IMG/VR virus record: IMGVR_UViG_2778261574_000008 | Coordinates: 1-32,400 of that record | Reading direction: 5' to 3' (one strand) | Length of the DNA stretch: 32,400 nt | From: a virus | Taxonomy: Duplodnaviria; Heunggongvirae; Uroviricota; Caudoviricetes | In this document: positions 1,249 to 29,587 of the stretch, piece by piece | Layout: every line of letters starts with the position of its first letter | Position numbering within the stretch: position 1 is the stretch's first letter | Notes under the pieces: generated by a model | Seen by the model: only the letters and a program-made list of their open reading frames with translations | Told to the model about the DNA's origin: nothing | The model's database searches: none | Program-made: the position numbers and the translations under genes

Positions 1249-1689
1249 ACGTAAACTTTTTCCGGTTGTTGTCGATAGCTCTATATCCCTCAACCGGAAA
1301 ATAATAATAGTAAAATGCTTAGCCCTGCTAATAATCGCCTAATCCAAACGCCTCATTCATGTTCTGGTACAGTCGCTCAAATGTACTTCAGATGCGCGGT
1401 TCGCTGATTTCCAGGACATTGTCGTCATTCAGTGACCTGTCCCGTGTATCACGGTCCTGCGAATTCATCAAGGAATGCATTGCGGAGTGAAGTATCGAGT
1501 CACGCCATATTTCGCTATCAGGATTCTGTGTGATGGTTACATCGCCCGGCTCAGGGCTGTTTAGTCATCAGCGCTTTCTGACAGTGCTGAGATTTCAACC
1601 TGTTGCAGTAAAAATGAGTAGATATAAGGCAAGTGTGCTGCCAAACCCATCTTTTACGGGGTGAAGGTAGATTTCGTTTGAAGGGTATC

Positions 1690-1704
1690 TGGTGTCCCCT
1701 GCAG
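1690..1704 (-). other. Putative prophage attR core: 15-bp fragment matching the 3' end of tRNA-Arg (argW type), CTGCAGGGGACACCA on the minus strand, with no tRNA 5' half
   Basis: Minus strand reads CTGCAGGGGACACCA, which matches my recollection of the argW 3' acceptor end including CCA. Upstream sequence does not form a tRNA, so this is a core duplicate, not a gene. Orientation puts phage DNA at higher coordinates. Confidence 0.4.
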
Positions 1705-1777
1705 ACATCGACTTGAGGCGGCAGGGGATTGATTGGAATGGTGTTTTTTAGATGTGAGAAATATTTTACCCGCTATT

Positions 1778-1978
1778 TTACCCATTGGCGCGGCTTAAGA
1801 GCTTATTTTTGAATTCACAATGGTCACGATATAACCATCTTGCTCGACCGTGGATAACTTTGGCTTTTGGCAGGTCGCCGGACTTAATCCGGTCGTAGAT
1901 GAAGGTTTTACCGAAGCCAGTATCAGCCATGATGAATTTCAAATCAACCAGTGAATCAGGTTGTAGTTCGTGTTGCAT
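1778..1978 (-). CDS. torI: Excisionase / AlpA-family winged-helix DNA-binding protein (TorI-type prophage Xis)
   Basis: 66 aa with an AlpA/Xis-like helix-turn-helix region (FIMADTGFGKTFIYDRIKSGDLP). It sits directly next to the att core at the prophage end, as in the KplE1 (CPS-53) prophage where torI lies at attR. The symbol rests on recalled size, position and family. Confidence 0.6.
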   Translation of the reverse strand: MQHELQPDSLVDLKFIMADTGFGKTFIYDRIKSGDLPKAKVIHGRARWLYRDHCEFKNKLLSRANG

Positions 1979-2021
1979 GAGTGCTATCTCCGAATAGGGA
2001 ATCGAACCTGCAAATCAGGCA

Positions 2022-2043
2022 ATAAAAAACCGCATTGATGCGG
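2022..2043 (-). terminator. Intrinsic terminator-like hairpin at the distal end of the leftward early operon
   Basis: Minus strand reads CCGCATCAATGCGG followed by TTTTTTATT, about 80 nt downstream of the 2122..2337 ORF. Confidence 0.45.
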
Positions 2044-2121
2044 CGATGGTATGTCTGGATATCTTGAGAAATGAACAGGCCTCATCGAGTGTGAGGCGGT
2101 GTGATTTCTTTATTTCCACTC

Positions 2122-2337
2122 TTAATGCTTGTCAGTGAATGGTTTCTCCATCTCCATTAATGCCTTATTCATATCATTTCGTAACTCTATAGCCATCCTG
2201 ACGGCTTCAACTTGTGCAGGATGTCGGTTAATTGCTGGAGAATATCGTCGGGAGCGAAGGATTGAGAAAACAAAGATAATGCAAGCAACTATCTGAATTG
2301 CATTGCATATTATTGATACAATGTGAATTGCAGCCAT
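2122..2337 (-). CDS. Hypothetical small protein with a hydrophobic N-terminal segment (possible small membrane protein)
   Basis: 71-aa ORF; residues 5-27 (IVSIICNAIQIVACIIFVFSIL) look like one transmembrane helix. Last gene before the terminator. Confidence 0.4.
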   Translation of the reverse strand: MAAIHIVSIICNAIQIVACIIFVFSILRSRRYSPAINRHPAQVEAVRMAIELRNDMNKALMEMEKPFTDKH

Positions 2338-2414
2338 CTACTACCCCAAATAAAAAACCGCCATCAGGCGGCTTGGTGTTCTTTCAGTTCTTCAATTCGA
2401 ATATTGGTTACGCC

Positions 2415-2726
2415 TCATTCGATGCGCACTCCTGGTATTTCGCCTTTTGATATTGCTAAGTCATAAATTTGCGCGGCACTATACCCATCTCGCATCCATG
2501 AATCTAAGGCGCTAACAGCCTCGCTACGCTTTTTATCTTCTCTCTCATTTTTGATATCAACGAGGACATCAACGCAATTAAGGCAAATGTGGATTTTGTC
2601 CTTACATTCGATCATGGCGGCTTTACCATGATTTCCGCCACACAGTGAGCATAAATCTTCAGGGTCTGGCTGGTATTTCTGTAACGTTAGAGGGTTGAAT
2701 GTTGAACAGGTCATAATCATCTCCAT
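2415..2726 (-). CDS. Hypothetical phage protein with a Cys-rich zinc-ribbon-like motif
   Basis: 103-aa ORF with CxxC ... C ... CxxC spacing (CSLCGG ... CLNC); co-oriented in the early-left operon. Confidence 0.5.
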   Translation of the reverse strand: MEMIMTCSTFNPLTLQKYQPDPEDLCSLCGGNHGKAAMIECKDKIHICLNCVDVLVDIKNEREDKKRSEAVSALDSWMRDGYSAAQIYDLAISKGEIPGVRIE

Positions 2727-2813
2727 AAAATAAAACTCGCCGTAGCGAGTTCAGATAAAAGAAATCCCCGCGAATGCGAGGATTGTTATTCACCTTTGAC
2801 GTCAAGTTGCAGG

Positions 2814-3116
2814 TTAGCCATGGTTAACCTCCTGCGGAGTAGCCTTTACAAGCACTGGTGTAAATCCATCTTCATTAAGGTTATGAATATAGACTTCCGT
2901 TCTCCTGCGCTCTTCAGCGTTTAATATGGTTTCTGGATCATAAACCCATACTTTCATTCGACTATTCCATGAAGAAATCGCTTCAGATCTAGTTCGTTTT
3001 TCTGGTCCTTGGGCACCACATTTGCATGACACATAGCGCATTTTCCCTCTGATACTGAATGAGTATCCGATGTTAAGCACAGTGGAACCACAGAATGGGC
3101 AGCGATAGAGATTCAT
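2814..3116 (-). CDS. Lar-family restriction alleviation protein
   Basis: 100 aa with an N-terminal CPFCG zinc motif and CKCG second motif, typical of the Lar family; stop overlaps the upstream gene. Confidence 0.6.
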   Translation of the reverse strand: MNLYRCPFCGSTVLNIGYSFSIRGKMRYVSCKCGAQGPEKRTRSEAISSWNSRMKVWVYDPETILNAEERRRTEVYIHNLNEDGFTPVLVKATPQEVNHG

Positions 3117-3793
3117 AAATCATCCACCTTAGGCGCAGCTGAGACAGCAACATTCCAGAACTCAGAAAACATATTGTATGCACCAGATAGATTGGAAGTG
3201 GCATACCCTCCAAGCTCACTTCTAATCTGAACGGCTCTCATCATTTCCGGCGTTAACTCCTTCGGCACCATAACCCAACCATCCGGAGTTACCGGAGAGT
3301 TGCCATCCAGCGCGTTCAACTTGTAAGCCTGGCTTACAGGTTCGGCACTATGAAGCATGGCAGCGCGGCAGGCGTTCCAGCCTTGAACCTTAGCTATTGC
3401 CACAACTGCATCGGTAAAGAACATTCTCGCGGTATCTGGCTCCGGCATTTCATCCGGCACCGCTTGCTGCGGTAACTGTGGTACAGTCAGTGACTCCAAT
3501 TCAGCGATACGCTTCTCTGCGGCTTCCAGTTCATCAAGCAGCGCCAAGACGGTAGCCGGATTGGCTGCGGCGATGAATTCAGCATTGGCCTGCTGTTCCA
3601 TTTGGAAATCTTCATCGAAACCGCTTTCAGGATGCGCTCCTTCAATTCTGCAAATGGGAAGATATCCAACAACTTCACGATGAATTAGCGCATCACCAGC
3701 ATCAAATCTCTCCTCTCCATATTCGAGCGACCACGCACCACACGTTGCTTTTTCTGCTGCCTCACGCAGTGCCTGATAGTCAATCTTGTTCAT
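3113..3793 (-). CDS. Ead/Ea22-like early-region protein
   Basis: 226 aa; N-terminus MNKIDYQALREAAEKAT plus a coiled-coil segment (LLDELEAAEKRIAELE) resemble the Ead/Ea22 family of lambdoid early-left regions. Confidence 0.6.
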   Translation of the reverse strand: MNKIDYQALREAAEKATCGAWSLEYGEERFDAGDALIHREVVGYLPICRIEGAHPESGFDEDFQMEQQANAEFIAAANPATVLALLDELEAAEKRIAELESLTVPQLPQQAVPDEMPEPDTARMFFTDAVVAIAKVQGWNACRAAMLHSAEPVSQAYKLNALDGNSPVTPDGWVMVPKELTPEMMRAVQIRSELGGYATSNLSGAYNMFSEFWNVAVSAAPKVDDL

Positions 3794-3794
3794 G

Positions 3795-4094
3795 TCACAT
3801 CACCCTGAAGCCGTTGCATTTACGTAAGAAATCGCAGATATAGCCCTTCATTTTTTCATGCCAATCTCGATCATTCCCATTGCACCACCCATCAGGTGGA
3901 GTCCAGTTTTCTATCAGAGCAGCCATTTTCTTTGCTTTCGCCGGAGTAGCTGTTGCGGTATCGCAGTAATGACGAGTGTCAACAAACTTATCCATGCCAT
4001 CGATATCAAGTACGCAAAACCATGTGTGATTCGGAATTCCTACAGGTGGTATTTGTTGCCCACGTCGGCGTTTATCAATGAGATATACACTCAC
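3795..4094 (-). CDS. Hypothetical phage protein
   Basis: 99-aa ORF tightly packed (2-4 nt gaps or overlaps) with neighbours in the leftward operon. Confidence 0.5.
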   Translation of the reverse strand: MSVYLIDKRRRGQQIPPVGIPNHTWFCVLDIDGMDKFVDTRHYCDTATATPAKAKKMAALIENWTPPDGWCNGNDRDWHEKMKGYICDFLRKCNGFRVM

Positions 4095-4495
4095 TGGTTA
4101 CCTCCTTTGCGAAGCTCTGCGGCGAACTCGTTAAGTGATATGTAGCAATCTCCAAATGTTAACGAACCGCTCGACTGCATATGCTCCATAGCCATCTCCA
4201 CACCCTGCGCCCGTACTTCAGCCAGGAAAGCATCGGTGGCTGGGGTTTCCGTGAAGTTGTCCTCCCAACCGTAGTACTCCTGACGACAGAAGTTATTAAA
4301 TTCCTTCTCCGACTGTTTAAGCGCCGCATTATCCGCTGCCAGCGCCGCGCACTTGGCCTCCGCTTCAGCAAATTTACGCACCAGATATTCAGCGTTTGTT
4401 TCGTTAACCTTTAAATCTCGTGGGATGCATTTACCTTTCAGAAAACCATCCATCTCAATTAGTGACATTTGTTTCATTTCTTCCCACTCCGCCAC
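4091..4495 (-). CDS. Hypothetical phage protein
   Basis: 134-aa ORF whose stop overlaps the next gene start; charged, helical composition. Confidence 0.5.
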
Positions 4496-4656
4496 ATCGC
4501 ATTCAGATATTTGTTTTGATTCACTGATGGAAACGAGTTTCGCTTAAGTAATTCCTCTCTCGATGGCATTGGCTTTACGCGTTGGCGAATAATCATTTCT
4601 GCCGGAAGAATGCCGGGATTGTATGCAAGTCCTCTCATGGTAAATTCCTCAGTCAT
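4474..4656 (-). CDS. Hypothetical small protein (60 aa from the internal start; the ORF is open up to 4791)
   Basis: ATG at 4654-4656 overlaps the stop of the 4649..4945 gene, suggesting translational coupling; fills the gap between two flanking genes. Confidence 0.4.
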
Positions 4657-4945
4657 TACTGATAGCGCCATAGCGTGAGCGGTAATTACGCAGGCGCGGG
4701 TCGATATATTCAGGGAAGTGGGTATATGTGGCTTTGCGGAATGGTCGGATTGATGTCTGGTAAATTCGCTCGCGTTCTTCTTTCTCTGCAAGCCATATAC
4801 AATGGCGAAATTCCTTTTCCTCTTTCGTTTCCTGCGGTAGCGACATTATCCGGTCGTAGTTTTTCCTGAATTTATCCAGCACCTCCGATACGGAATTGCC
4901 GGAACAGCGGCGCGGGTCATCCGCACCATACAGAGGCGCTGGCAT
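4649..4945 (-). CDS. Hypothetical 98-aa protein at the Abc (anti-RecBCD) position downstream of the recombination genes; possibly Abc2-like
   Basis: 98-aa ORF immediately downstream of erf/ssb, matching the size and position of P22 Abc2. Sequence identity not verified. Confidence 0.45.
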
Positions 4946-4968
4946 AATGGAATCCTTATTTTGCTAAT

Positions 4969-5352
4969 TTAGAAGGGAATTGAATCGTCGTATTCAGGAT
5001 GATTTTGATGATTGCTACTTTGTTGCTGTTGGCTGTTTCCTGAAGTTGCAAATCCAATCTTTGCATTCAGTAATTCAAGAGTGATTGATTGACCATTTTG
5101 CCCCTGATAAACATCAACCCTGATGTTTTCTCCGGTAATTTCAACAATGCCACCTTCAACAAGAACACTACAGTAGTAATCCACTTGCGCTCCCGGCTTG
5201 GCAAATACAACGGCGCTGTAGTTTGTCCATTCTTTCTTTTTTGTCTGGCGATCGTAATACTGAACGCCAGCACGGATGTTGAATCCGATATTTTCCCCAG
5301 CCTGAAACTCTCTTGCAGGTTTGTTTAGTCTTACAGTAATCGAATGTGCCAT
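4969..5352 (-). CDS. ssb: Single-stranded DNA-binding protein-like (phage SSB)
   Basis: 127 aa with a Gln/Ser-rich linker and an acidic C-terminal tail ending YDDSIPF, the hallmark SSB tail (DDDIPF); directly follows erf. Confidence 0.55.
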   Translation of the reverse strand: MAHSITVRLNKPAREFQAGENIGFNIRAGVQYYDRQTKKKEWTNYSAVVFAKPGAQVDYYCSVLVEGGIVEITGENIRVDVYQGQNGQSITLELLNAKIGFATSGNSQQQQSSNHQNHPEYDDSIPF

Positions 5353-5957
5353 TAAGCAATCGCTCCTTCTAATTCGTCTCGTCTGATGTTGTAAACGTCC
5401 TGCGCTTTGTGCTGCTCAGGTGTGCCTTCGAGCATCTTCCACGCTTTGGCGAACGCCTGTTTAAGCTCTTCTACGGTGTTTTTTTGCATTGCTGCGTCAG
5501 TGAATGCTTTTAGAACCTGTTCAGGTGTAGGTGATGGTTTTGATTGCTTTGCTGCTGCGTTCTGCTGATGTTTATGCTCGTCTGTATCTGCATCTTTCGC
5601 ATCATCAATGCCGAACAAACCATTGAGGCAATACTTGCGTGCATAAGAGCTTGTAGCTCCAGTAACTTGTGCAGAATCCATTCCTTTCTTGCTTTCTTCC
5701 TCTCGTGCAAGGGCAGTTGCCGTATGACTGTTTTCGCCATCGGTAATAGTTGCCGTGGCTTTCACGTAATACCGATCACCAATCAACACAACTTCATCGC
5801 TGATTGATAAAAACAGGCCATTCAGTAACGGCTTAACGCCTTCAAGAATGTCTTCGCAGCTTCTGTATTTATATTTACCGAATGAGTTGTACTGATTCTT
5901 TGGCGCGTTCAGATTCTCCTGAATAGCTGCCAGTCTTGCGTAAAATTCTTTGCTCAT
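5352..5957 (-). CDS. erf: Erf-family single-strand annealing recombinase
   Basis: ORF open 5352..5987; likely start at MSKEFYARLAAIQ (5957). Pattern resembles P22 Erf; sits in the recombination slot of the pL operon. Confidence 0.7.
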   Translation of the reverse strand: MSKEFYARLAAIQENLNAPKNQYNSFGKYKYRSCEDILEGVKPLLNGLFLSISDEVVLIGDRYYVKATATITDGENSHTATALAREEESKKGMDSAQVTGATSSYARKYCLNGLFGIDDAKDADTDEHKHQQNAAAKQSKPSPTPEQVLKAFTDAAMQKNTVEELKQAFAKAWKMLEGTPEQHKAQDVYNIRRDELEGAIA

Positions 5958-6058
5958 ATGATTGTTCTCAGAATGGACACGGCCCAAGGAAATAACGCTG
6001 ATTTAATACTTCGACTCGGGACAAGTTAAGGCATACCCGCATTCCTTCGCGGTCACCA

Positions 6059-6217
6059 TTATGGCGATACCAGAGAGCTTTCTGCGTGTACATGCGTCTC
6101 TGTAACTTGCTCTCCTTCACTGTGGTTGCAAGTGACATGAATATCTCCTTCGTTACCGATTAATTCTTTCATCTGACGAATGAATTCTTCGTCTGACCAG
6201 TTATCTGTAAAACTCAT
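6059..6217 (-). CDS. Hypothetical small protein at the kil position (52 aa from the coupled start)
   Basis: ATG at 6215-6217 overlaps the stop of the cIII-like gene; acidic small protein. Function unknown; the Kil analogy is positional only. Confidence 0.35.
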   Translation of the reverse strand: MSFTDNWSDEEFIRQMKELIGNEGDIHVTCNHSEGEQVTETHVHAESSLVSP

Positions 6218-6384
6218 GGACGGCCTTGTTGTTTCAAAATATCCCAAAGCTTTTCGAGCAAACTTTTCATTCTTGGTTGTTTAAAGTCTGCTCCGGTTAA
6301 AATATTTTTTCGTGAATGCTGTACCGATAAAATCGGGTTGAAAGGGCGAACCGATGCCGCCCCTGCAATAGCGAACTGTTGCAT
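6214..6384 (-). CDS. cIII: CIII-like protein (FtsH inhibitor / lysogeny promoting)
   Basis: 56 aa from the ATG at 6384, preceded by an AAGGAG Shine-Dalgarno 8 nt upstream. MQQFAIAG... and ...LWDILKQQGRP resemble lambda CIII (MQYAIAG... LIDILNQPG). Confidence 0.5.
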   Translation of the reverse strand: MQQFAIAGAASVRPFNPILSVQHSRKNILTGADFKQPRMKSLLEKLWDILKQQGRP

Positions 6385-6446
6385 AGGATGCTCCTTCTGT
6401 TTGATTGCATAACGAAAACGCCTCGAGTGAAGCGTTATTGGTATGC

Positions 6447-6474
6447 ATATAAAAATGCCCTCACATCGGAGGGC
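6447..6474 (-). terminator. tL-like intrinsic terminator between the N-proximal genes and cIII
   Basis: Minus strand reads GCCCTCCGATGTGAGGGC followed by ATTTTTAT. Confidence 0.4.
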
Positions 6475-6569
6475 AAAGAAGATTTCCAATAATCAGAACA
6501 AGTCGGCTCCTGTTTAGTTACGAGCGACATTGCTCCGTGTATTCACTCGTTGGAATGAATACACAGTGC

Positions 6570-6758
6570 TTATTCGTCATGCATTTCAGGTAATTCTTCG
6601 TATTCGACGCCCCATACGAGTTTACACCAACTAACTCGCTCATATCTTTTACAAAAATCAGACCACATGACTTGTGTTCCATCATGGTTTGTTATTACTT
6701 CTGTAATATCACCAACACTAACAAAACTGGTATTAGAAGCAGTTATTTTTACTTTCAT
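6570..6758 (-). CDS. Hypothetical small protein
   Basis: 62-aa ORF; its start overlaps the stop of the upstream 44-aa ORF (TAATG). Confidence 0.4.
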   Translation of the reverse strand: MKVKITASNTSFVSVGDITEVITNHDGTQVMWSDFCKRYERVSWCKLVWGVEYEELPEMHDE

Positions 6759-6892
6759 TACTTATCTCCAAGAGCATTTGCAGCCTCTTTTGCTTTGTGA
6801 ATCCATAGCATAGCCATGTAGTACACAACCTTTTCGTCGGCTCCTGTGATATCTTGCTCTGCCATCCATTTTGTAAATTCAACTGCGTTCAT
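6758..6892 (-). CDS. Hypothetical small protein (44 aa), below the ORF-track cutoff
   Basis: ATG preceded by a GAGGTG Shine-Dalgarno; stop overlaps the downstream start; predicted MNAVEFTKWMAEQDITGADEKVVYYMAMLWIHKAKEAANALGDK. Confidence 0.4.
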   Translation of the reverse strand: MNAVEFTKWMAEQDITGADEKVVYYMAMLWIHKAKEAANALGDK

Positions 6893-6931
6893 ATTCACCT
6901 CTGTTGTTTATGCTAAAAATAAAGGCCACCA

Positions 6932-7183
6932 TCAGGCAGCCTTGTTGTAAATGTTGCAGGTATCAAGTAAGTAATTAGATGGAGCGCCATAAATTATGAA
7001 TTCATCGTTTGTCGGGTCCATCTCCATCTCTTGGCCTATTGCCATTCTTGCGTCAGTGTCATCAGCGGCGAAGCATAAAACAGCCCACGCACCCATTGTT
7101 TTAAAAAGAACTGCAATTGGCTGTGGTTTTACTGAATTTGCGTTAGCGCGAAAATCACAAATCGCACTTTCATGAAATTCCAT
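6932..7183 (-). CDS. Hypothetical early protein immediately downstream of N
   Basis: 83-aa ORF, same strand, 8 nt after the N stop. Confidence 0.45.
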   Translation of the reverse strand: MEFHESAICDFRANANSVKPQPIAVLFKTMGAWAVLCFAADDTDARMAIGQEMEMDPTNDEFIIYGAPSNYLLDTCNIYNKAA

Positions 7184-7191
7184 ATCTCACC

Positions 7192-7491
7192 TCAAATAAG
7201 TGGTTTGCTGCCTAATTTCATTTTCTGGCGACCAACACAAGTCACACCCATTTCACTACGTGGCTTGCTGTAGTAAATACGGTTCTGTTTACTCTCGACT
7301 TCTTCTGCCTTCTTGCAGCGAAGGCTTCCGAGTGATGCTGCTTTGTCTGCTCTGACGCAACCAGAGAGCTTTAGCGCAATTTTTCGCGTCAGTCGCTGCT
7401 CTTGCATTGCCTGTTCACGTTGAGCCTGTCTGCGTGCTCTGCGGCGATTTCTGGCGTTATCGTCAGCCAGATATGTAATGACTACTGTCAT
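7192..7491 (-). CDS. N: N-like transcription antitermination protein (phage 21 / P22 gp24 type)
   Basis: About 100 aa from MTVVITY (GGAGG Shine-Dalgarno 6 nt upstream); N-terminal arginine-rich motif NARNRRRARRQAQREQ; C-terminal two-thirds match my recollection of phage 21 N. The ORF-track N-terminal extension is rejected. Confidence 0.65.
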   Translation of the reverse strand: MTVVITYLADDNARNRRRARRQAQREQAMQEQRLTRKIALKLSGCVRADKAASLGSLRCKKAEEVESKQNRIYYSKPRSEMGVTCVGRQKMKLGSKPLI

Positions 7492-7801
7492 GTTGACCTC
7501 CGATGAAACAACTTTGGAATTGATAGTGATTGCAAAGTGGTTTCTGGCCCCTCGAACTGAGGGGCAGAAAGAGCATCTCGCCACCTAATAGGTCAATGCT
7601 CGGATCGAGAGATTTAATTAACCTCGGTTTTGAAGTTATGCATTCACATAAATCCTCCTGTTGCATGTGCAGCATTGGCTGTGTTTGGCGGCTGCATTTC
7701 GCCTATGGAATTGACTTTGGCGGTGACGCGCCGGGTGCTTATCTTCCGGTTGCCGTCGTGCAGCTGCACTTCACGTCACCCCAAAGCCAACTACTCTTTG
7801 G

Positions 7802-8009: not shown

Positions 8010-8660
8010 TTATGGAAGGTTTGCTAGTTTTGCATCGACAACTACGCCGATGATTTTGCAGTTTCCGTTGATCTCGATCATCGGATATTGTGGGTTAAGT
8101 GGTTTTAGAAACTTCCTGCCTGCATCAATAACTAACTTCTTGAAAGTTGCCTCGTTTTCTCCTTCGAGCTTTGCAACTACCAGTTTCCCGTTACGCGGCT
8201 CTACTTCAGGATCGACGAGTATTATCATTCCTTCAGGGATACTGAGACCGGCCGGAGCCGTCATTGAGTCTCCCTTCACGTCCAACCAAAACGAATCTTC
8301 TGAACAGTCTACGGTTGTATCGTACCAGTTATCTATTGCACGCTTATGATATGGTTCTACAGCTTCCATCCAGCATCCTGCGCTCACCCAGCTAATCAGA
8401 GGGTATGACCCTCTTGGATCATGCCTACTGTGATAGGCAATGTTTGAAAGACTTTCCTCTCCTTTCATCAGATAGTCAGGGGAACACTTCAACGCATTAG
8501 CCAGGGCGAGAAGATTCTCTCCATTTGGCTCTGTCTCAGAGCGTTCCCACTGAGATATGGCAACATTAGACACGCCGACCATCTTTCCAAGTGCGGCCTG
8601 CCTGATCTTGAGTTCTTTTCTCCGAGCGCGAATGCGCTCTCCCATCAATTGAGTTTTCAT
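8010..8660 (-). CDS. c2: Prophage repressor, P22 C2 / lambda CI family (HTH plus S24 LexA-like peptidase domain)
   Basis: 216 aa; near-identical by recollection to P22 C2 (MNTQLMGERIRARRKKLKIRQAALGKMVGVSNVAISQWERSE ...); divergent from cro across an operator region. Confidence 0.9.
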   Translation of the reverse strand: MKTQLMGERIRARRKELKIRQAALGKMVGVSNVAISQWERSETEPNGENLLALANALKCSPDYLMKGEESLSNIAYHSRHDPRGSYPLISWVSAGCWMEAVEPYHKRAIDNWYDTTVDCSEDSFWLDVKGDSMTAPAGLSIPEGMIILVDPEVEPRNGKLVVAKLEGENEATFKKLVIDAGRKFLKPLNPQYPMIEINGNCKIIGVVVDAKLANLP

Positions 8661-8932: not shown

Positions 8933-8977
8933 TGCTCTTTAACAGTCATGGTCCTCATTCCCGCCGAAATGCGGGAA
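8933..8977 (+). promoter_or_regulatory. nutR (boxA TGCTCTTTAACA plus boxB hairpin)
   Basis: boxA at 8933-8944; hairpin TCCCGC-CGAAAT-GCGGGA at 8959-8976, identical to the nutL boxB. Confidence 0.55.
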
Positions 8978-9034
8978 TACAACGCGCATAAGTTGATGCG
9001 CATAACTTCTTATTTGTTAAGGAAATACTTACAT

Positions 9035-9328
9035 ATGGTTCGTGCAAACAAACGCAACGAGGCTCTAAGAATCGAGAGTGCGTTGCTTAACAAAATCGCA
9101 ATGCTTGGAACTGAGAAGACAGCGGAAGCTGTGGGGGTTGATAAGTCGCAGATCAGCAGGTGGAAGAGGGACTGGATTCCAAAGTTCTCAATGCTGCTTG
9201 CTGTTCTTGAATGGGGTGTCGTCGACGACGACATGGCTCGATTGGCACGACAAGTTGCTTCGATTCTCACCAATAAAAAACGCCCGGCGGCAACCGAGCG
9301 TTCTGAACAAATCCAGATGGAATTCTGA
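9035..9328 (+). CDS. c1: CII-like transcriptional activator (P22 C1)
   Basis: 97 aa from [35 protein letters not shown]..., matching my recollection of P22 C1; the ORF-track start at 8948 would run through nutR and is rejected. Confidence 0.8.
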
Positions 9329-10363: not shown

Positions 10364-10471
10364 ATGAAATCAAAAATCAAATCGCTACTGGTCGCTGGTT
10401 ATAACCACGGCTGGTTAAGTATTTCGTTTGTCGATTTCTGGTTTAAAAATCTCAATCTGAGGGAATCATGA
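10364..10471 (+). CDS. Hypothetical small protein (35 aa), translationally coupled to the primase-helicase
   Basis: Stop TGA overlaps the downstream ATG (ATGA). Very short; weak support. Confidence 0.3.
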   Translation: MKSKIKSLLVAGYNHGWLSISFVDFWFKNLNLRES

Positions 10472-12348
10472 CGCCAAGTGAACTTAGCGACCTGCTTTGG
10501 GCGCAGGTTGACAGGGTGGCTCCGCACCTGTTGCCAAACGGCAAGAAAGAGGGGCATGAGTGGGTTGCCGGTAACGTCAACGGTGACAAGGGAAACAGCC
10601 TTAAGGTCAACCTTAGCGGCAAGAAAAAATGGGCTGATTTCGCTGAGGGAGACGGCGGTGACATGCTTGATTTGTGGATGGCATGTCGTGGAATTAACCT
10701 GCATCAGGCTATGCAGGAAGCGAAAGCATTTCTCGGTATCAAGGATGACGATCACCATTTCGATGCCAGACGTGAGAAGAAATTCTCCAGACCTGATCGC
10801 AAGAAAATCGCCCGCTACGTTACCAGAACAGAATCCCATCTTGAGTACCTGCAATCGCGTGGCATATCGCCAGAAATCGTAAAGCGCTACGAGGTTGTCA
10901 GCGGCAAGGTGTGGAATGGAGAGCGAGAACTGGATGCTCTGGTGATTCCGTACAAACGCGATGGTGAGTTGTTGCAGGTCAAGCGAATCAGCACTGAGCG
11001 CCCGGACGGGAAGAAAGTCATTATGGCAGAAGGTGATTGCGAACCTTGTCTGTTCGGATGGCAGGCTCTGGACGCTGGCGTGAGGGCGGTTGTACTTTGC
11101 GAAGGCGAAATTGATTGTATGAGCTATGCGCAATACGGCATCTCGGCGTTATCCGTGCCGTTTGGTGGAGGGAAAGGCGCTAAGCAACAGTGGATTGAGT
11201 TTGAGTATCACAACCTCGACAGGTTTGAGGAAATATTCATCTCGATGGACGTTGATGATGTTGGTCGTGAAGCCGCAAGGGAAATCGCAAGCCGACTCGG
11301 TGAACATCGTTGCCGTCTTGTTACTCTGCCGTACAAAGACATCAACGAATGCCTGATGAACGGTGTTACCGAGGATGAAATCTGGCAGTACATCGGCACG
11401 GCATCCTACTTCGATCCTGAAGAACTCTACAGTGCGCGAGAGTTTTACCAGGACACTATCAACGCTTTCTACGGCAAGCAGCAGTATCTGTTTAATCCAC
11501 CGTGGGAATCTCTGGCAGATAAATTCCAGTTCCGTGAGGCAGAGTTGACGCTGGTCAATGGTGTGAACGGTCACGGAAAAACGGAGGTTGTCGGGCATAT
11601 GGCACTTGAGGCAATGCGTCAGGGTGTGAAGACGTGCATCGCGTCACTTGAGCTGAAGCCAGGCATTCTTCTTAAGCGACTTACCCGTCAGGCGACGTGC
11701 TGCAAGATGCCGCCAGTGCTGGAAATTGACTCTGCATTTAAATTTTATGACGAAAGACTTTGGGTGTTTGGCCTGACCGGAACGGCGAAAGCCGACAGGC
11801 TGATCGAAATATTCGACTACGCTCGCCGCCGATACGGCATCCAGTTATTCATCATCGACAGCCTGATGAAATGTGGCATAGGCGACGATGACTATAACGG
11901 GCAGAAGGCGTTTGTTGACTCGATTTGCGACTTCAAAAACAAAACAAACTCCCACGTCATTCTCGTTACTCACTCGCGAAAAGGAGACAGCGAAGAAAAA
12001 CCAACCGGGAAAATGGACGTAAAAGGCTCTGGAGCGATAACAGACCTGACAGACAACCTTTTCATCATATGGCGTAACAAGGCTCGCGAGAGAGCGTTAC
12101 AGAGAGTTCAGAGTGGTGAAAAAATGTCAGAGAAGGACGAACAGCTACTGGCATCTCCGGCATCTGTTTTGATGCTTGAAAAACAACGTAACGGCGAAGG
12201 TTGGGAAGGTGGTGTCCCGTTGTTCCTTGACGAGCAATCGCACCAGTTCCTGCAACTTGAATCAGGATCTCCATATAGCTACATCGCCAATATGCCGAAA
12301 TCGGAATATGACGAGGCGTGGCGACAGGAAAACGTGACGGAGTATTAA
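10468..12348 (+). CDS. Bifunctional DNA primase / replicative helicase (Toprim domain plus RecA-like NTPase domain)
   Basis: 626 aa; Toprim motif VVLCEGEIDCMSYAQ; Walker A GVNGHGKTE; Walker B-like LFIIDSL; occupies the P / DnaB-like gene 12 slot after O. Confidence 0.75.
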   Translation: MTPSELSDLLWAQVDRVAPHLLPNGKKEGHEWVAGNVNGDKGNSLKVNLSGKKKWADFAEGDGGDMLDLWMACRGINLHQAMQEAKAFLGIKDDDHHFDARREKKFSRPDRKKIARYVTRTESHLEYLQSRGISPEIVKRYEVVSGKVWNGERELDALVIPYKRDGELLQVKRISTERPDGKKVIMAEGDCEPCLFGWQALDAGVRAVVLCEGEIDCMSYAQYGISALSVPFGGGKGAKQQWIEFEYHNLDRFEEIFISMDVDDVGREAAREIASRLGEHRCRLVTLPYKDINECLMNGVTEDEIWQYIGTASYFDPEELYSAREFYQDTINAFYGKQQYLFNPPWESLADKFQFREAELTLVNGVNGHGKTEVVGHMALEAMRQGVKTCIASLELKPGILLKRLTRQATCCKMPPVLEIDSAFKFYDERLWVFGLTGTAKADRLIEIFDYARRRYGIQLFIIDSLMKCGIGDDDYNGQKAFVDSICDFKNKTNSHVILVTHSRKGDSEEKPTGKMDVKGSGAITDLTDNLFIIWRNKARERALQRVQSGEKMSEKDEQLLASPASVLMLEKQRNGEGWEGGVPLFLDEQSHQFLQLESGSPYSYIANMPKSEYDEAWRQENVTEY

Positions 12349-19335: not shown

Positions 19336-19758
19336 ATGGCGACTGAACCAAAAGCTGGTCGCCCCTCTGATTATATGCCGGAGGTGGCTGACGATATCTG
19401 CTCGTTGCTTTCTTCTGGCGAAAGTTTGCTGAAAGTATGTAAGCGTCCTGGTATGCCGGATAAGTCCACTGTTTTCCGCTGGTTGGCAAAGCATGAGGAT
19501 TTTCGCGACAAGTACGCGAAGGCAACTGAGGCACGAGCTGATTCTATTTTCGAAGAGATATTCGAAATTGCTGACAATGCGATTCCAGATGCTGCTGAAG
19601 TGGCAAAGGCAAGACTTCGCGTTGATACCCGCAAATGGGCGCTGGCCCGAATGAATCCCCGTAAGTATGGCGACAAGGTAACTAACGAGCTTGTCGGTAA
19701 GGACGGCGGCGCAATTCAGATTGAAACATCACCGATGAGCACTCTGTTCGGAAAATGA
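19336..19758 (+). CDS. Terminase small subunit (Sf6 gp1-type)
   Basis: 140 aa starting MATEPKAGRPSDYMPEVADDI, matching my recollection of Sf6 TerS; overlaps TerL by ATGA. Confidence 0.75.
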   Translation: MATEPKAGRPSDYMPEVADDICSLLSSGESLLKVCKRPGMPDKSTVFRWLAKHEDFRDKYAKATEARADSIFEEIFEIADNAIPDAAEVAKARLRVDTRKWALARMNPRKYGDKVTNELVGKDGGAIQIETSPMSTLFGK

Positions 19759-21170
19759 CCTCGATTAATCCTATCTTTGAACCGTTCATTGAGGCGCATC
19801 GCTACAAAGTCGCCAAAGGCGGTCGAGGTAGCGGTAAGTCATGGGCAATTGCGAGGCTGCTTGTTGAAGCGGCGCGTCGGCAGCCTGTGCGCATACTTTG
19901 CGCTCGTGAGCTGCAAAACAGTATCAGCGATTCGGTAATTCGGTTGCTTGAAGACACCATAGAGCGGGAAGGGTATTCGGCTGAGTTTGAAATTCAGCGT
20001 TCAATGATTCGTCATCTCGGAACGAATGCTGAGTTCATGTTCTACGGCATCAAAAACAACCCGACGAAGATTAAATCGCTCGAAGGCATTGATATCTGCT
20101 GGGTGGAGGAAGCGGAAGCGGTAACGAAGGAATCATGGGATATCCTGATACCAACCATCCGCAAGCCATTTTCCGAAATATGGGTGAGCTTCAACCCGAA
20201 AAACATCCTCGACGATACCTATCAGCGATTCGTTGTAAATCCTCCCGATGATATTTGCCTGCTGACAGTGAACTACACCGACAACCCGCACTTTCCTGAA
20301 GTTCTCCGTCTGGAGATGGAAGAGTGCAAACGCAGAAATCCGACACTATATCGTCACATCTGGCTTGGTGAGCCAGTGAGCGCAAGTGATATGGCAATCA
20401 TCAAACGTGAATGGCTTGAAGCCGCAACCGATGCGCACAAGAAACTCGGATGGAAGGCGAAAGGCGCTGTTGTCTCTGCGCATGACCCGTCAGATACAGG
20501 ACCGGATGCTAAAGGTTATGCATCGCGCCACGGTTCGGTAGTTAAGCGCATTGCCGAAGGCCTGCTGATGGACATCAATGAAGGTGCTGACTGGGCAACT
20601 TCGCTGGCGATTGAAGACGGCGCTGACCATTACCTGTGGGATGGTGATGGCGTCGGTGCGGGGCTACGCAGACAGACAACGGAAGCGTTCTCCGGCAAGA
20701 AAATCACCGCCACGATGTTCAAGGGCAGCGAATCGCCATTCGATGAAGATGCACCATATCAGGCCGGAGCATGGGCCGATGAAGTCGTACAGGGCGACAA
20801 CGTTCGCACTATTGGTGATGTGTTCCGCAATAAGCGAGCACAATTCTATTACGCGCTGGCTGACAGACTGTATCTGACATATCGGGCGGTTGTTCACGGT
20901 GAGTATGCAGACCCCGACGACATGCTGAGTTTCGACAAAGAAGCGATAGGCGAGAAGATGCTGGAGAAGCTGTTTGCAGAACTGACGCAGATTCATCGCA
21001 AATTCAATAACAACGGGAAGTTGGAGCTTATGACTAAGGTCGAAATGAAGCAGAAGCTCGGTATTCCATCTCCTAACCTGGCTGATGCATTGATGATGTG
21101 TATGCATTGCCCGGAGTCGGCTGCGCAACCCGACTATTCCAGTTACTCAATTCCTTGTGGTGTAGGTTGA
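19755..21170 (+). CDS. Terminase large subunit (ATPase plus nuclease)
   Basis: 471 aa; Walker A KGGRGSGKS near the N-terminus; Walker B-like DICWVEEAE. Confidence 0.9.
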   Translation: MTSINPIFEPFIEAHRYKVAKGGRGSGKSWAIARLLVEAARRQPVRILCARELQNSISDSVIRLLEDTIEREGYSAEFEIQRSMIRHLGTNAEFMFYGIKNNPTKIKSLEGIDICWVEEAEAVTKESWDILIPTIRKPFSEIWVSFNPKNILDDTYQRFVVNPPDDICLLTVNYTDNPHFPEVLRLEMEECKRRNPTLYRHIWLGEPVSASDMAIIKREWLEAATDAHKKLGWKAKGAVVSAHDPSDTGPDAKGYASRHGSVVKRIAEGLLMDINEGADWATSLAIEDGADHYLWDGDGVGAGLRRQTTEAFSGKKITATMFKGSESPFDEDAPYQAGAWADEVVQGDNVRTIGDVFRNKRAQFYYALADRLYLTYRAVVHGEYADPDDMLSFDKEAIGEKMLEKLFAELTQIHRKFNNNGKLELMTKVEMKQKLGIPSPNLADALMMCMHCPESAAQPDYSSYSIPCGVG

Positions 21171-21171
21171 T

Positions 21172-23370
21172 ATGGCAGAAAAAAAGATGACTGACTGGCA
21201 TCGCAAGGTGCTGTGCAACTTTGATAATGCCTGGTCAGCAACGCAGGATATGCGTGAGCAGATTATTGAGGCTCAACGTTTCGTCCGGGTGTCCGGCGCA
21301 CAGTGGGAAGGCAGTACAAACGCTGGTTACTCATTTGATGAAGGCAGGTTTGAGCATTACCCGCGCTTTGAACTGAATAAGATTGCCCGTGAATGTGATC
21401 GCATCATTGGCGAGTATCGACAGAATCGCATCAGCGTTAAATTCAGGCCGAAGGATGACAAGGCATCGGAAGCTTTAGCCGAAAAAATGAACGGAAAATT
21501 CCGCGCTGACTATCAGGAAACATCCGGTGGCGAAGCGTGTGATAACGCATTTGATGATGCCGTAACGGGTGGATTCGGTTGTTTCCGCATGTGTGCCGAT
21601 TACGAAGATGAAATGGATCCGAGTAACGAGCAGCGACGCATCAGTCTTCTTCCTGTTTACGACCCGGCGACATGCGTTTTCTTCGATCAGGACAGCAAGC
21701 AATATGACCGCTCTGATGCTATGTGGGCTATGGAAATGTTCTCCATGACGCCTAAAGCGTTCGAGGCTGAATACCCTGATTCCATCGCGGCAAGCCTTTC
21801 TCGAGATGGCACTGGTACTCAGTATGACTGGTCAACGCCCGATGCCATCTATGTTGGACGCTACTACGAAGTTCGCATAGAGAAGGTGAAGCTCACGGCG
21901 TGGCGCAACCCTGTTAGCGGAGAAACGGCAATCTATGATGAAGAGCAAATCAAAGATGTTGTTGACGAGCTGACCGATGGCGCATTCGAACTGATTGGCG
22001 AGCGGACAGTGAAGAAACGCCGCGTTTATTGCGGCCTTCTGTCTGGCGCTGAATGGCTGGAAGAACCGAAGCGTATTCCGGGCGAACATATTCCTCTCAT
22101 CCCGGTATATGGGCGTCGCTCATTTGTTGATAATCAGGAGCGAATCGAAGGCCATGCAGCAAAAGCGATGGATGCACAGCGTCTTGAGAACCTGATGGTT
22201 TCCATGATTGCAGATAACGCTACTCAGGCTGGCGGTGATGGCATTCCTATCGTGGATGTTGATTTCATTCCCGGCCCATTAATGAATCACTGGGCAGAGA
22301 GGAATAAGAAAAGACCTGCAGTTCTTCCTATGACCAGCAGGAAGGACAAAAACGGAACAGTCATTTCAGAAGCTCAGGTTGCTGGCTGGACACCTCCGAC
22401 ACAAATGCCTCCTGCTCTTGCCGGGTTATTGCAGTACACCGGAACGGCTATTCAGCAAATTACAGGTGCGTCGCAGCTTGAGAACATGCCGAGCAACGTC
22501 GCTACTGATACCGTTGATAGCATTTTTAACCGGATGGACACGCAGTCCTATATCTACATGGACAACATGGCTAAATCTATGCGTCGCGCTGGCGTTGTGT
22601 GGCTTTCTATGGCGCGTGAAGTCTATGGCAGCGATACGCCGATGCGTATCGTTAATGAGGACGGCAGCGATGACGTGGCGCTGATGACTGGTGAAGTGGT
22701 TGACCGTCAGACAGGGCAGGTTATCGCGCTTAACGACCTTTCGCAGGGTAACTATGAAGTGACTGTCGATGTCGGTCAGTCGTTCGCTACTCGCCGTGAT
22801 GCAACGGTTAAGTCGTTACTTTCCATGCTGGCACTTATCCCACCAGGAACGCCGAAGCACGACCTTGTATCGTCGATGATTCTCGACAATATGGACGGCG
22901 AAGGGATGGACGACCTGAAAGAATACAACCGCAATCAGTTGCTTCTGTCTGGAGTTATCAAGCCGAGAACGCCAGAAGAACAGCAGATGGTTGAGCAGGC
23001 GAAACAACAACAGGCCAGTCAGCCAGATCCGGCTATGGTTGCTGCGCAAGGTCAGCTTCTTGCTGGTCAGGCTGAATTGCAGAAAGCGCAGAACGAGCAG
23101 GCAGCCATTCAGGTTAAAGCATTCCAGGCACAGACTGATGCTCAGGTTGCAGCGGCAAACGTTGTGAAAATCCTCGCATCTGCTGATAGCCAGCAAAAAT
23201 CTGATATCCGTGAGGCGCTGAAACTGCTCGGACAGTTCCAGCAACAGCAAGGAGATAATGCCCGTGCTGATGCAGAGCTTGTCCTGAAAAGTCAGGCACA
23301 GGGCCATGCGCAGCGCATGGACATCAGCAGCATCCTGCAAAAATCAACTCAGCAACAACCACAGCAGTAA
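21172..23370 (+). CDS. Portal protein (P22 gp1-like)
   Basis: 732 aa; segments such as KRRRVY ... GEHIPLIPVYG and a Gln-rich C-terminal barrel region resemble P22 portal. Confidence 0.9.
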   Translation: MAEKKMTDWHRKVLCNFDNAWSATQDMREQIIEAQRFVRVSGAQWEGSTNAGYSFDEGRFEHYPRFELNKIARECDRIIGEYRQNRISVKFRPKDDKASEALAEKMNGKFRADYQETSGGEACDNAFDDAVTGGFGCFRMCADYEDEMDPSNEQRRISLLPVYDPATCVFFDQDSKQYDRSDAMWAMEMFSMTPKAFEAEYPDSIAASLSRDGTGTQYDWSTPDAIYVGRYYEVRIEKVKLTAWRNPVSGETAIYDEEQIKDVVDELTDGAFELIGERTVKKRRVYCGLLSGAEWLEEPKRIPGEHIPLIPVYGRRSFVDNQERIEGHAAKAMDAQRLENLMVSMIADNATQAGGDGIPIVDVDFIPGPLMNHWAERNKKRPAVLPMTSRKDKNGTVISEAQVAGWTPPTQMPPALAGLLQYTGTAIQQITGASQLENMPSNVATDTVDSIFNRMDTQSYIYMDNMAKSMRRAGVVWLSMAREVYGSDTPMRIVNEDGSDDVALMTGEVVDRQTGQVIALNDLSQGNYEVTVDVGQSFATRRDATVKSLLSMLALIPPGTPKHDLVSSMILDNMDGEGMDDLKEYNRNQLLLSGVIKPRTPEEQQMVEQAKQQQASQPDPAMVAAQGQLLAGQAELQKAQNEQAAIQVKAFQAQTDAQVAAANVVKILASADSQQKSDIREALKLLGQFQQQQGDNARADAELVLKSQAQGHAQRMDISSILQKSTQQQPQQ

Positions 23371-23460
23371 TTAACCCATAACGTGCAATGGCTGTCTTTA
23401 TGAGGCCTGGCACCCTATTGCCTTCCGATGGGCTGAACATCGAGTAAACAGGGGTAACAA

Positions 23461-24354
23461 ATGGACCAGATGGCAGAAAACACACCAGAAGTTGAAATCG
23501 AAACCGACGCGTCAGAGCAGATTCCTGATGATGTCGAACTGGCTGAAGAAGTCGAAACAGAAGATGGCAGTGAGTCCTCTGGCAATGATGCAGAGGAAGC
23601 TACTGAAACTGATGACGACGAATCAGAACAGGAATTCTACTTTGGTGACGAAAAGCTGGATTCGCCAACCAGCGAAGATAGCGCAGAGCATGGACTGGTA
23701 AAACACCTGCGCAAGACGATTAAAGAGAAAGACCGTGAGCTGAAAGAGCTGATGCGTCAGTCTCAGAAACCCGTCGAGCAGCAGCCGGTAATCACTCAAC
23801 CACCGCGAATGCCAAAACTGGATGATGAGGACATCGGTTTCGATGAAGAAATCTACCAGCAACGCATGGCTAAGTGGGCAGAGGATAACGGCAAGTACCA
23901 GCAACAGGAGATGGCTCGCAAGCAGAAGGAGCAGGAGCTTCAGGCTGCCTATCAAGAGCGATTATCCAAATATCAGCAACGTGTTAAGGCTCTCAAAGTT
24001 CCTGGCTATCAGGAAGCTGAGCAGGCCGTACTCGAGGAAATCCCCATCGAGACACAAAACGCGATCTTGTTTGAGTCAGAGAAGCCGGAAATCGTTGTTC
24101 TGGCACTCGGTCGCAACGCTGAACTGCGCAAACAACTGGCAGAAGCTACCAACCCCGTAGCAATTGGTCGTCTGCTGGAACGTATCGAATCGAAGGCCAG
24201 AATCATGCCAAAAGCAAAAACCACGGCAGCCACAACCCCGACAGTTAAGGGGAGCAACGGCGCAGTAATCAACAACCTCGACAAACTGAAAGCCAAGGCG
24301 CTGGAAACTGGTGACTGGACGCCATATTTCGCCGCTAAAAAGGCAAAAAAATAA
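23461..24354 (+). CDS. Scaffolding protein (P22 gp8 position)
   Basis: 297 aa, highly acidic N-terminus, helical charged body, basic C-terminus; lies between portal and coat. Confidence 0.6.
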   Translation: MDQMAENTPEVEIETDASEQIPDDVELAEEVETEDGSESSGNDAEEATETDDDESEQEFYFGDEKLDSPTSEDSAEHGLVKHLRKTIKEKDRELKELMRQSQKPVEQQPVITQPPRMPKLDDEDIGFDEEIYQQRMAKWAEDNGKYQQQEMARKQKEQELQAAYQERLSKYQQRVKALKVPGYQEAEQAVLEEIPIETQNAILFESEKPEIVVLALGRNAELRKQLAEATNPVAIGRLLERIESKARIMPKAKTTAATTPTVKGSNGAVINNLDKLKAKALETGDWTPYFAAKKAKK

Positions 24355-24372
24355 CCTATCGGAGCATTAAGC

Positions 24373-25626
24373 ATGGCTAACCAATTAGCAAAAGACCTTG
24401 AAATCATGTTCGAAAACTACGTTGAAGGCTTTGAGGCCGCCTGCGTAGTTTCCCGTAACGCTAAAAAATTCCGTCCCGGTGATACAGCAATGCAGCGAGC
24501 AGGTGATGTTCTGTATCGTCCGCAGCATTACCACATGAACATTGAGGAAGGCCTAGACCTCAGCGGCAAAACGCCAACAGCACTGGTTCAGCGCCTTGTT
24601 CCTTCTGTGTTCAAGGAGCCGAAAAACATTCTGTACACTCTGGATGCGCGTGAAATGCGTGACCCGGAACATAAAACTGAAGCTGGTCGAGCCGCAGGTA
24701 TGCGCCTTGCTGCACAGATTGACTCTGACCTGATTTCCATGGTCACGCAGCGTGCTACTAACGTGATCACGATGGCTGACTCAACCACAGGTTCACAGGG
24801 CCGTGATTTGTGGAACTGTGCGGCAGGTATTGATGCCACCATGACGGCGATTGGTGTACCTCAGGGTATCAACCGTCGCTCTTTCTGGAACCCCTTCAAC
24901 TACAAAGACCTTGCTGGCGAGCTTGGTCACCGTGCCTATGCTCAGGGCGCAACCCTGACAGCATACGAAAAAGCGCAGATCCCTCCGGTTGCGTCCTTCG
25001 ATAGCTACAAGACCGATATTTCTGGTCGTGTTCCGAAGGGTACAGCAACTTCCATTACGCTGGCAGCAGCACCTGCGCACAAGGTTGAAGCGAAAGATGC
25101 TAACGATATGCCAGTTGATAACCGACAGGGGACTATTACGGTATCTGCATCTGGCTTGCAGGTTGGTGATGCGTTCACCATTGCCGGTGTGAATTCCGTA
25201 CACCAGATCACCAAAGATACCACCGGGCAGCCGCAGGTATTCCGCGTTCTGGCAGTTAGCGGAACGACAGTAACTATCTCCCCGAAAATTCTGCCGCCTG
25301 ACAACGCGGATGTCGCCAGCCGTCCATATGCAAACGTTGATGCTAATGCGGCAAGTAGCGCAGCAATCACCATTCTCAACAAAAATGCCGCACCGGCTAA
25401 TCTGTTCTGGGCTGATGGTTCTGTTGAACTGATGTACGGCAAACTGGCATTCCCGACTGGTCAGGGGCCACAGGTAATGACAGCAACCACCGAGCAGGGC
25501 GCTACGCTGATCATGTCTTACGCCTTCGACCACATCAAAGGCGTAACCACTGCACGTTTCACCACTCTGTACGGTTGCTCTGTACTGGTTCCTGAATATA
25601 CGGGCATCGTTATTGCCGGGCAGTAA
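24373..25626 (+). CDS. Major capsid (coat) protein, P22 gp5-like
   Basis: 417 aa; conserved blocks relative to P22 coat (PGDTAMQRAGD vs PPAASMQRSSN; NLFWADGSVELMYG vs NVFWADDAIRIV). Confidence 0.85.
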   Translation: MANQLAKDLEIMFENYVEGFEAACVVSRNAKKFRPGDTAMQRAGDVLYRPQHYHMNIEEGLDLSGKTPTALVQRLVPSVFKEPKNILYTLDAREMRDPEHKTEAGRAAGMRLAAQIDSDLISMVTQRATNVITMADSTTGSQGRDLWNCAAGIDATMTAIGVPQGINRRSFWNPFNYKDLAGELGHRAYAQGATLTAYEKAQIPPVASFDSYKTDISGRVPKGTATSITLAAAPAHKVEAKDANDMPVDNRQGTITVSASGLQVGDAFTIAGVNSVHQITKDTTGQPQVFRVLAVSGTTVTISPKILPPDNADVASRPYANVDANAASSAAITILNKNAAPANLFWADGSVELMYGKLAFPTGQGPQVMTATTEQGATLIMSYAFDHIKGVTTARFTTLYGCSVLVPEYTGIVIAGQ

Positions 25627-25633
25627 TTTTGGT

Positions 25634-25656
25634 GGGGCTTCGGCCCCATTTTTATT
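25634..25656 (+). terminator. Intrinsic terminator immediately after the coat gene
   Basis: GGGGC-TTCG-GCCCC hairpin followed by ATTTTTATT. Confidence 0.55.
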
Positions 25657-25667
25657 GGGAGAAGACA

Positions 25668-25856
25668 ATGGCACGAACAATGCTCTATAAGCCTGGCAAC
25701 ATGATCACCTGTGGTCAGTTTGCTGTCGATTACATCATTGTTGATGACGAAGAAGTTAAATCTCACCTGAAAAAAGGGTGGGTAAAAACTCCTGAAGAAA
25801 CCGCAACGAAGCAAAAAGTGGCTAAGGCGGAAGAAGATGGCGAAAACGAAGGGTGA
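25668..25856 (+). CDS. Hypothetical small protein (62 aa) between coat and gp4
   Basis: ATG at 25668 with a GGAGAA Shine-Dalgarno; overlaps the gp4 start. Confidence 0.4.
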   Translation: MARTMLYKPGNMITCGQFAVDYIIVDDEEVKSHLKKGWVKTPEETATKQKVAKAEEDGENEG

Positions 25857-26298: not shown

Positions 26299-26307
26299 GG
26301 TGAATAA

Positions 26308-28882: not shown

Positions 28883-28884
28883 CC

Positions 28885-29577: not shown

Positions 29578-29587
29578 GGAGTAATCA

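Follow-up and report, generated by a model that had tools for sequence, protein, structure and literature searches.

An argW attR core with torI on the cscB side of a P22-like prophage whose ejection-protein gene is interrupted by an IS3-family element

Introduction

The tRNA-Arg gene argW is a known prophage hotspot (PMC8309913, PMC8787464). In E. coli K-12 the site carries KplE1 (CPS-53), a 10.2-kb remnant without a repressor (PMC2951348), which borders dsdC and is arranged as argW-attL-intS ... torI-attR (the latter annotated as pawZ). The promoter of intS lies inside attL and is repressed by both IntS and TorI, the transcription of int and that of the RDF gene are uncoupled, excision is controlled mainly via the RDF gene, and the module is conserved in HK620, Sf6 and CUS-3 (PMC2951348). 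TorI, which is 100% identical to HkaC of HK620 and P18 of Sf6, binds cooperatively to five sites on attL and, with IntS and IHF, drives attL x attR recombination in vitro; it also inhibits the host response regulator TorR (PMC3509656). HK620 and Sf6 (Lederbergvirus) are argW integrators as well, in which attP lies between int and the gene encoding TorI (hkaC and gene 18, respectively), and they carry P22-type virion genes. Lambda likewise pairs a tyrosine integrase with a small winged-helix RDF, and its xis ends an N-antiterminated leftward operon; however, in lambda xis is the immediate neighbour of int and shares its transcript, attP is situated on the far side of int, and the two genes remain together at one prophage end, whereas in the argW module attP lies between int and RDF, so that the two genes are found at opposite ends and are separately transcribed (PMC2951348).

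Here we analyse a stretch of 32,400 nt (hereafter the window; positions 1 to 32,400 of the IMG/VR record IMGVR_UViG_2778261574_000008, Caudoviricetes), for which an earlier note, made from the sequence alone, had proposed a KplE1-type split int/xis module at a tRNA-Arg attR. The features of the window are collected in Table 1.

Table 1. Coordinates of host, attachment-site and prophage features in the window
Feature	Position	Strand	Basis or remark
cscB, sucrose permease of the csc regulon, host gene, 415 aa	1-1248	+	LacY_symp, E=1.7e-193 (Pfam)
Host DNA from cscB to the att core, 441 nt, non-coding	1249-1689	.	100% identical to the flank of the unoccupied argW site
DUF4942 pseudogene remnant	~1391-1480	-	annotation transferred from PK13 (L001 5901-5990)
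attR core, 15 nt	1690-1704	-	copy of argW nt 61-75 (CTGCAGGGGACACCA); homology breaks at its edges
attR phage arm	1705-1804	-	near-identical to K-12 attR, 3 differences
torI, 66 aa	1778-1978	-	identity to PDB 1Z4H; PHROG 66; RefSeq torI annotation in relatives
Region like the 'phage integration' promoter of HK620	1985-2023	-	coordinates transferred from HK620 1664-1702
Exact 16-nt copy of argW nt 46-61 (TTGCAGGTTCGATTCC)	1998-2013	-	just upstream of torI
cII site, TTGC-N5-TTGC	2010-2022	-	transferred from HK620 1689-1701
Terminator-like hairpin (2044->2029), then T-run	2023-2044	-	just upstream of the conserved torI module
Leftward early operon, torI being the last gene	2122-7584	-	Pfam/PHROG; colinear with annotated PK13
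Lar	2814-3116	-	Pfam/PHROG
Ead/Ea22, 226 aa	3113-3793	-	Pfam/PHROG
SSB-like	4969-5352	-	Pfam/PHROG
Erf	5352-5987	-	Pfam/PHROG
N-like antiterminator	7192-7584	-	Pfam/PHROG
CI-type repressor (HTH and peptidase S24)	8010-8660	-	
CII	8948-9328		Pfam/PHROG
Primase/helicase	10468-12348		Pfam/PHROG
Packaging, head and ejection genes, P22-like	19336-31003	+	Pfam on the identical contig L010; PK13 annotation
gp16-like DNA-transfer (ejection) protein gene, truncated	31000-32400	+	466 of ~612 codons

Results

Host flank and att core

On its host side the junction is marked by the sucrose permease gene cscB; RefSeq names its relatives either cscB or 'oligosaccharide MFS transporter'. Located 10 nt past the cscB stop codon, an inverted repeat with perfect 11-bp arms (TTTTCCGGTTG ... 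CAACCGGAAAA, 1258-1301) is likely the transcription terminator of this gene. The non-coding flank farther on contains a fragment of a DUF4942 gene that may be a leftover of an older element at the argW hotspot; at the corresponding place in O55:H7 and JCH767 a DUF4942-domain protein is annotated that is not flagged as partial. The first bases of the window are the ATG of cscB and its last (at 32400) are a stop codon, so the window was apparently cut at gene-call boundaries.

The left boundary of the prophage is set by the attR core, which reads tggtgtcccctgcag on the plus strand and CTGCAGGGGACACCA on the minus strand. The earlier note had taken these 15 nt for the 3' end of argW, and the match proved to be exact: they equal nt 61-75 of the 75-nt argW of K-12 MG1655 (locus L011 2370-2384) and of argW in strain PK13 (locus L001 46879-46893), and in the K-12 annotation the identical 15 nt form the pseudogene pawZ, directly after torI at the end of the cryptic prophage CPS-53. 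The 15-mer is present in a single copy in the window, even with two mismatches permitted. The published core of KplE1 has 16 nt (CTGCAGGGGACACCAT; PMC2951348). In the alignment K-12 carries a T after CACCA on both sides whereas the csc-side host flank in the window carries a G, and the identity block is therefore 15 nt here and 16 nt in K-12, a difference that is not expected to matter. No tRNA was found in the window by ARAGORN, as expected because the argW piece is a 15-nt fragment, and the Rfam scan of the window gave no match at gathering thresholds. A TCGAT just left of the core (5/7 T-loop-like) was dropped, since K-12, PK13 and HK620 read TAGAT and the motif is not conserved.

torI and the attR arm

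Between the 15-mer and the torI ORF lie 73 nt (1705-1777). The torI product is identical in 66 of 66 residues to the 'Tor inhibition protein' of E. coli K-12 (PDB 1Z4H, E=6.6e-43) and matches PHROG 66, 'excisionase and transcriptional regulator'. It had been introduced as a 66-aa TorI/AlpA-type excisionase; the TorI half of this name stands, whereas the AlpA half was given up, as Phage_AlpA (PF05930) had no match at E<=0.01, HTH_17 alone appeared in Pfam and remained below threshold (16.9 bits vs a cut-off of 27), and no NCBIfam model matched, i.e., neither database gives a family-level name.

Two direct repeats of TATTTTACCC (1762-1771 and 1774-1783) are found in the attR arm, where they overlap the torI stop codon. 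They fall at the position of the annotated attP repeat of HK620 (1441-1463) and hold a TAAA motif on the complementary strand, as described for the P' sites of attL (PMC2951348); we regard them as probable candidates for arm-type sites of IntS. The 135-bp attR that was active in vitro is bounded by the primer attR-IHF2 (PMC3509656), which matches the window at ~1784-1803.

On the other side torI is adjoined by an ORF of 71 aa (2122-2337, minus strand) with a hydrophobic N-terminus, which matches PHROG 15342 (unknown function) and no model of Pfam or NCBIfam. Terminator-like hairpins flank this ORF (2374->2355 before it, 2097->2079 and 2044->2029 after it), which looks like a moron arrangement, i.e., an accessory gene with its own terminators.

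Empty and occupied forms of the site

Three independent sequence comparisons agree that 1690-1704 is the true phage/host junction. First, the window and the torI-attR segment of K-12 are near-identical from the T-run upstream of torI (the point at which conservation with both K-12 and PK13 starts) through the core, and are unrelated directly after CACCA, where dsdC-side DNA follows in K-12 and cscB-side DNA in the window. Second, an attB of 800 nt, rebuilt from window 1305-1704 and the remaining argW and yfdC of PK13, was recovered unbroken and with 100% identity from many E. coli genomes, and 1414 of the 5426 complete E. coli genomes contain at least 80% of it at a single place. Third, an attP of 615 nt, rebuilt from the PK13 flank on the intS side, the core itself and window 1705-2004, is unbroken at ~98% in HK620, Sf6, N7, IME10, HK633 and others; the HK620 annotation places an 'attP core' at exactly the position of the rebuilt core, with int and hkaC on either side. 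Other strains and phages do possess the empty attB and the free attP form. When the junction itself was searched (window 1430-1980), the whole cscB/attR/torI junction was held by 372 of the 5426 complete E. coli genomes (~7%), K-12-type genomes matched only from window 1690 rightwards, and unoccupied genomes matched only up to ~1711.

In PK13 the layout predicted by the earlier note is realised to the letter: the order is cscB-attR-torI ... P22-like prophage ... tailspike-intS-tRNA-Arg (argW)-yfdC, with torI and intS at opposite ends. In relatives intS thus comes to adjoin the regenerated argW at the far prophage end. The phage attP is hereby placed between torI and intS, and because the crossover falls within the 15-16-nt core, torI comes to lie at the cscB end. 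What the earlier note had said of such phages, an attP between int and xis that sends the two genes to opposite prophage ends, is what the unbroken attP of HK620 and Sf6 and the separated ends of PK13 display, and its reading as a KplE1-type split module at a tRNA-Arg attR is borne out by breakpoints at the core edges and by the existence of both attB and attP in nature.

The best match to the junction (99.5% over window 1430-1980) came from E. coli KSC207 (NZ_CP019558.1). In this genome (L014 1-48000) two tandem copies of a P22-like prophage occupy cscB/argW, with a torI-intS (attP-type) junction between them, which reflects either a tandem double lysogen or a misassembly of replicating phage DNA.

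Gene content of the prophage

An integrase gene had been reported missing between the host permease gene and the phage early genes, and it is in fact missing from the whole window: IntS of K-12 and of PK13 gave nothing better than E=1.2 by tblastn, no integrase is annotated in the stretch of the PK13 prophage that is colinear with the window, and wherever the window is not colinear with PK13, Pfam or PHROG identifies the ORFs as something else. In addition to the early genes of Table 1, NinG, Q and Rha were detected among the ORFs of the window (Pfam/PHROG). The presence of a CI-type repressor with a peptidase S24 domain indicates an SOS-inducible immunity region.

The late genes comprise those for terminase, portal, scaffold, coat, gp4, gp10, needle and gp14-, gp7- and gp20-like proteins. 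Pfam on contig L010 (see below) yielded P22_portal, P22_CoatProtein, P22_Tail-4, Phage_stabilise, P22_gp7, Inj_translocase and Phage_P22_gp16, and the P22-like (Lederbergvirus) structural genes for portal, coat, gp4, gp10, gp7, gp20 and gp16 keep their conserved order.

The 226-aa Ead/Ea22 protein was also encountered in prophages with other integration modules, namely in L018 (5470-6736), which has a lambda-type Exc+Int pair, and in L019 (5633-6811), where Int adjoins an exonuclease I gene. The occurrence of this protein together with other modules shows the torI/intS module to be an exchangeable mosaic unit. Look-ups of the gp20-like and Ead/Ea22 proteins returned related, non-identical prophages only.

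An IS3-family element in the gp16-like gene

All homologues of the gp16-like protein (~612 aa) continue ...GCTATGCGTGCA, whereas the window reads ...GCTATGTGA and then stops; its product matches PHROG 770 over profile positions 1-504 of 668 only. An exact-protein look-up of the 466-aa product had a sole match, the 13.9-kb Logan contig SRR3987950_272 (L010). The last 11,401 nt of the window recur in this contig without a difference, and it ends 22 nt past the window end. Beyond the break in the gp16-like gene it reads TGAACCGCCCCGGGAATCCTGGAGA (L010 11399-11423) and stops within an inverted repeat of the IS3 family; bases 32398-32400 of the window (TGA) are the initial 3 nt of this repeat. The 25-mer TGAACCGCCCCGGGAATCCTGGAGA has thousands of occurrences in E. 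coli genomes, and in CFT073 it precedes an 'IS3 family transposase, programmed frameshift' by ~30 nt; we take it to be the inverted repeat of the IS629/IS1203 type. A 40-mer across the last bases of the window had no exact match among GTDB representative genomes, and no complete E. coli genome has the junction according to a 124-nt query across it.

Judged from these alignments, an IS3-family element interrupts the gp16-like ejection-protein gene. A complete, uninterrupted set of P22-like essential genes is thus not what the window holds, the gp16-like gene being cut at codon 466 of ~612; the tailspike gene and the immI region fall outside the window. The DNA-ejection (DNA transfer) protein is required for infectivity in P22, and because the IS sits in the gene for this protein, the prophage is probably defective and not infectious, while it may still be able to excise. 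The hope that the locus might describe, for the first time, a relative of the defective K-12 element in its full length has to be given up: HK620 and Sf6 already are such relatives, and the present copy is disrupted by the IS.

argW fragments on both sides of torI

In a comparison of argW with the window, two exact matches stand out by their length, nt 46-61 (1998-2013) and nt 61-75 (the core); the next-best are 11-mers only. The two fragments lie on one strand, keep the order that they have in the tRNA gene and tile its last 30 nt, and torI and the attR arm (293 bp) are found between them. None of 100 shuffles gave a chance match to the 16-mer, which is kept at the same place in KplE1 of K-12, PK13 and HK620. 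Integrases that target tRNA genes typically have, adjacent to int, an attP identity block of 30 nt or more. It is conceivable, and in our view rather unlikely, that the ancestral attP had such a long block and that an RDF cassette was later inserted or recombined into it, which would have reduced the core to 15-16 nt and given rise to the split int/xis arrangement.

In HK620 the 16-mer lies within the annotated cII-dependent promoter, and the TTGC at its end makes up half of the cII site annotated there; function may help to preserve the 16-mer, because it is situated within this 'phage integration' promoter. No mention of the 16-nt fragment was found in the KplE1 papers PMC2951348 and PMC3509656. 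A degenerate second core beside the 16-mer was looked for by eye and rejected (only 4/15 positions match).

Discussion

Proposed working of the module

We are confident that the locus as a whole is best explained as the known argW attR with TorI, an IntS partner at the far end, excision as established in the literature, and an IS-broken gp16-like gene. By comparison with the relatives, intS and argW very likely follow downstream in the source strain. If the module works as in KplE1, IntS would be produced at a constant low level, repressing itself, from a promoter of its own within attL, and (also according to the gene order) excision would be set off when torI is transcribed. The gene order suggests that torI would be expressed upon inactivation of the repressor, most likely because an N-antiterminated, derepressed leftward transcript reads through the hairpin at 2044-2023. 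TorI would then occupy its attL sites and, with IntS and IHF as partners, direct attL x attR recombination, and might in addition inhibit the TorR protein of the host, as described for KplE1.

Other readings of the locus

The window ends exactly at the IS insertion in the gp16-like gene, and as deletions and inversions can arise through IS elements, the prophage might have lost its far end or carry it elsewhere. In this case a deletion or inversion caused by the IS3-family element would have left the other end without intS and attL and locked the prophage in place, with torI persisting as a leftover or as a host regulator, for which its documented role as an inhibitor of TorR (PMC3509656) could be invoked. 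We regard this as improbable: a break at a multicopy IS is usual in any short-read assembly and is uninformative on deletion, the examined relatives with the same left junction (PK13, KSC207) retain intS, and the remaining prophage in the window is colinear and full-length.

The torI-attR segment is almost identical to that of K-12, which could suggest a short defective remnant like KplE1/CPS-53. This is refuted by the gene content, as the window holds ~30.7 kb of a P22-like prophage (repressor, cII, N, Q, replication, lysis, packaging, head and ejection genes); the element is a P22-like, HK620/Sf6-type prophage and not a KplE1-like stump, and only the recombination module is common to both. 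That the 15-mer is a chance match with the prophage boundary elsewhere is likewise refuted, for although 6/100 shuffles gave one match with up to two mismatches permitted (0.06 matches expected), the 15-mer is exact, the breakpoints against K-12-type and unoccupied genomes lie at its two edges, and the rebuilt attB and attP are both found in nature.

Comparison with known systems

For annotation, the value of the analysis is that the left boundary is fixed at 1690-1704, torI is named, and an IS-interrupted, probably non-viable copy is flagged. The split layout explains why an integrase is missing near the cscB end. The argW fragments split around torI raise the sole question that is new, and it is a small one.

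The PK13 prophage (NZ_CP074028.1) is among the closest known systems; its host context and both junctions are alike, and it is colinear over most of the window at 93-99% identity. Its host side reads dsdA-(dsdX')-cscR-cscA-cscK-cscB and then torI; the early part continues from torI ... to Erf, Kil, N, repressor, Cro, CII, replication, nin genes, Q and lysis; and the late part comprises terminase, portal, scaffold, P22-type coat, gp4, gp10, needle and ejection proteins ... immI, tailspike and intS. The two differ by replacement of a number of early genes, of the immunity region and of part of the nin genes, and the gp16-like gene of PK13 is intact (612 aa) whereas that of the window is truncated. 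Compared with HK620 and Sf6, which are free infectious phage genomes, the copy in the window is integrated and IS-interrupted, and the genes of the early and nin regions are mosaic and different.

KplE1 has an identical TorI, a core that is alike except for the 16th base, a near-identical attR phage arm with the TATTTTACCC repeats in both, and a torI likewise oriented towards the core; however, the prophage in the window belongs to the ~40-kb class of P22-like elements, has a full immunity region, borders cscB instead of dsdC, and carries an IS in its gp16-like gene. The lambda-type arrangement is met in L018, where it is linked to the same Ead/Ea22 early gene as in the window. The feature described here is the already known argW recombination module of KplE1, HK620 and Sf6, the genetics, biochemistry and structure of which have been studied: experiments with these three elements have already established the argW hotspot, the neighbouring csc genes, the split int/RDF, the uncoupled regulation and the double role of TorI.
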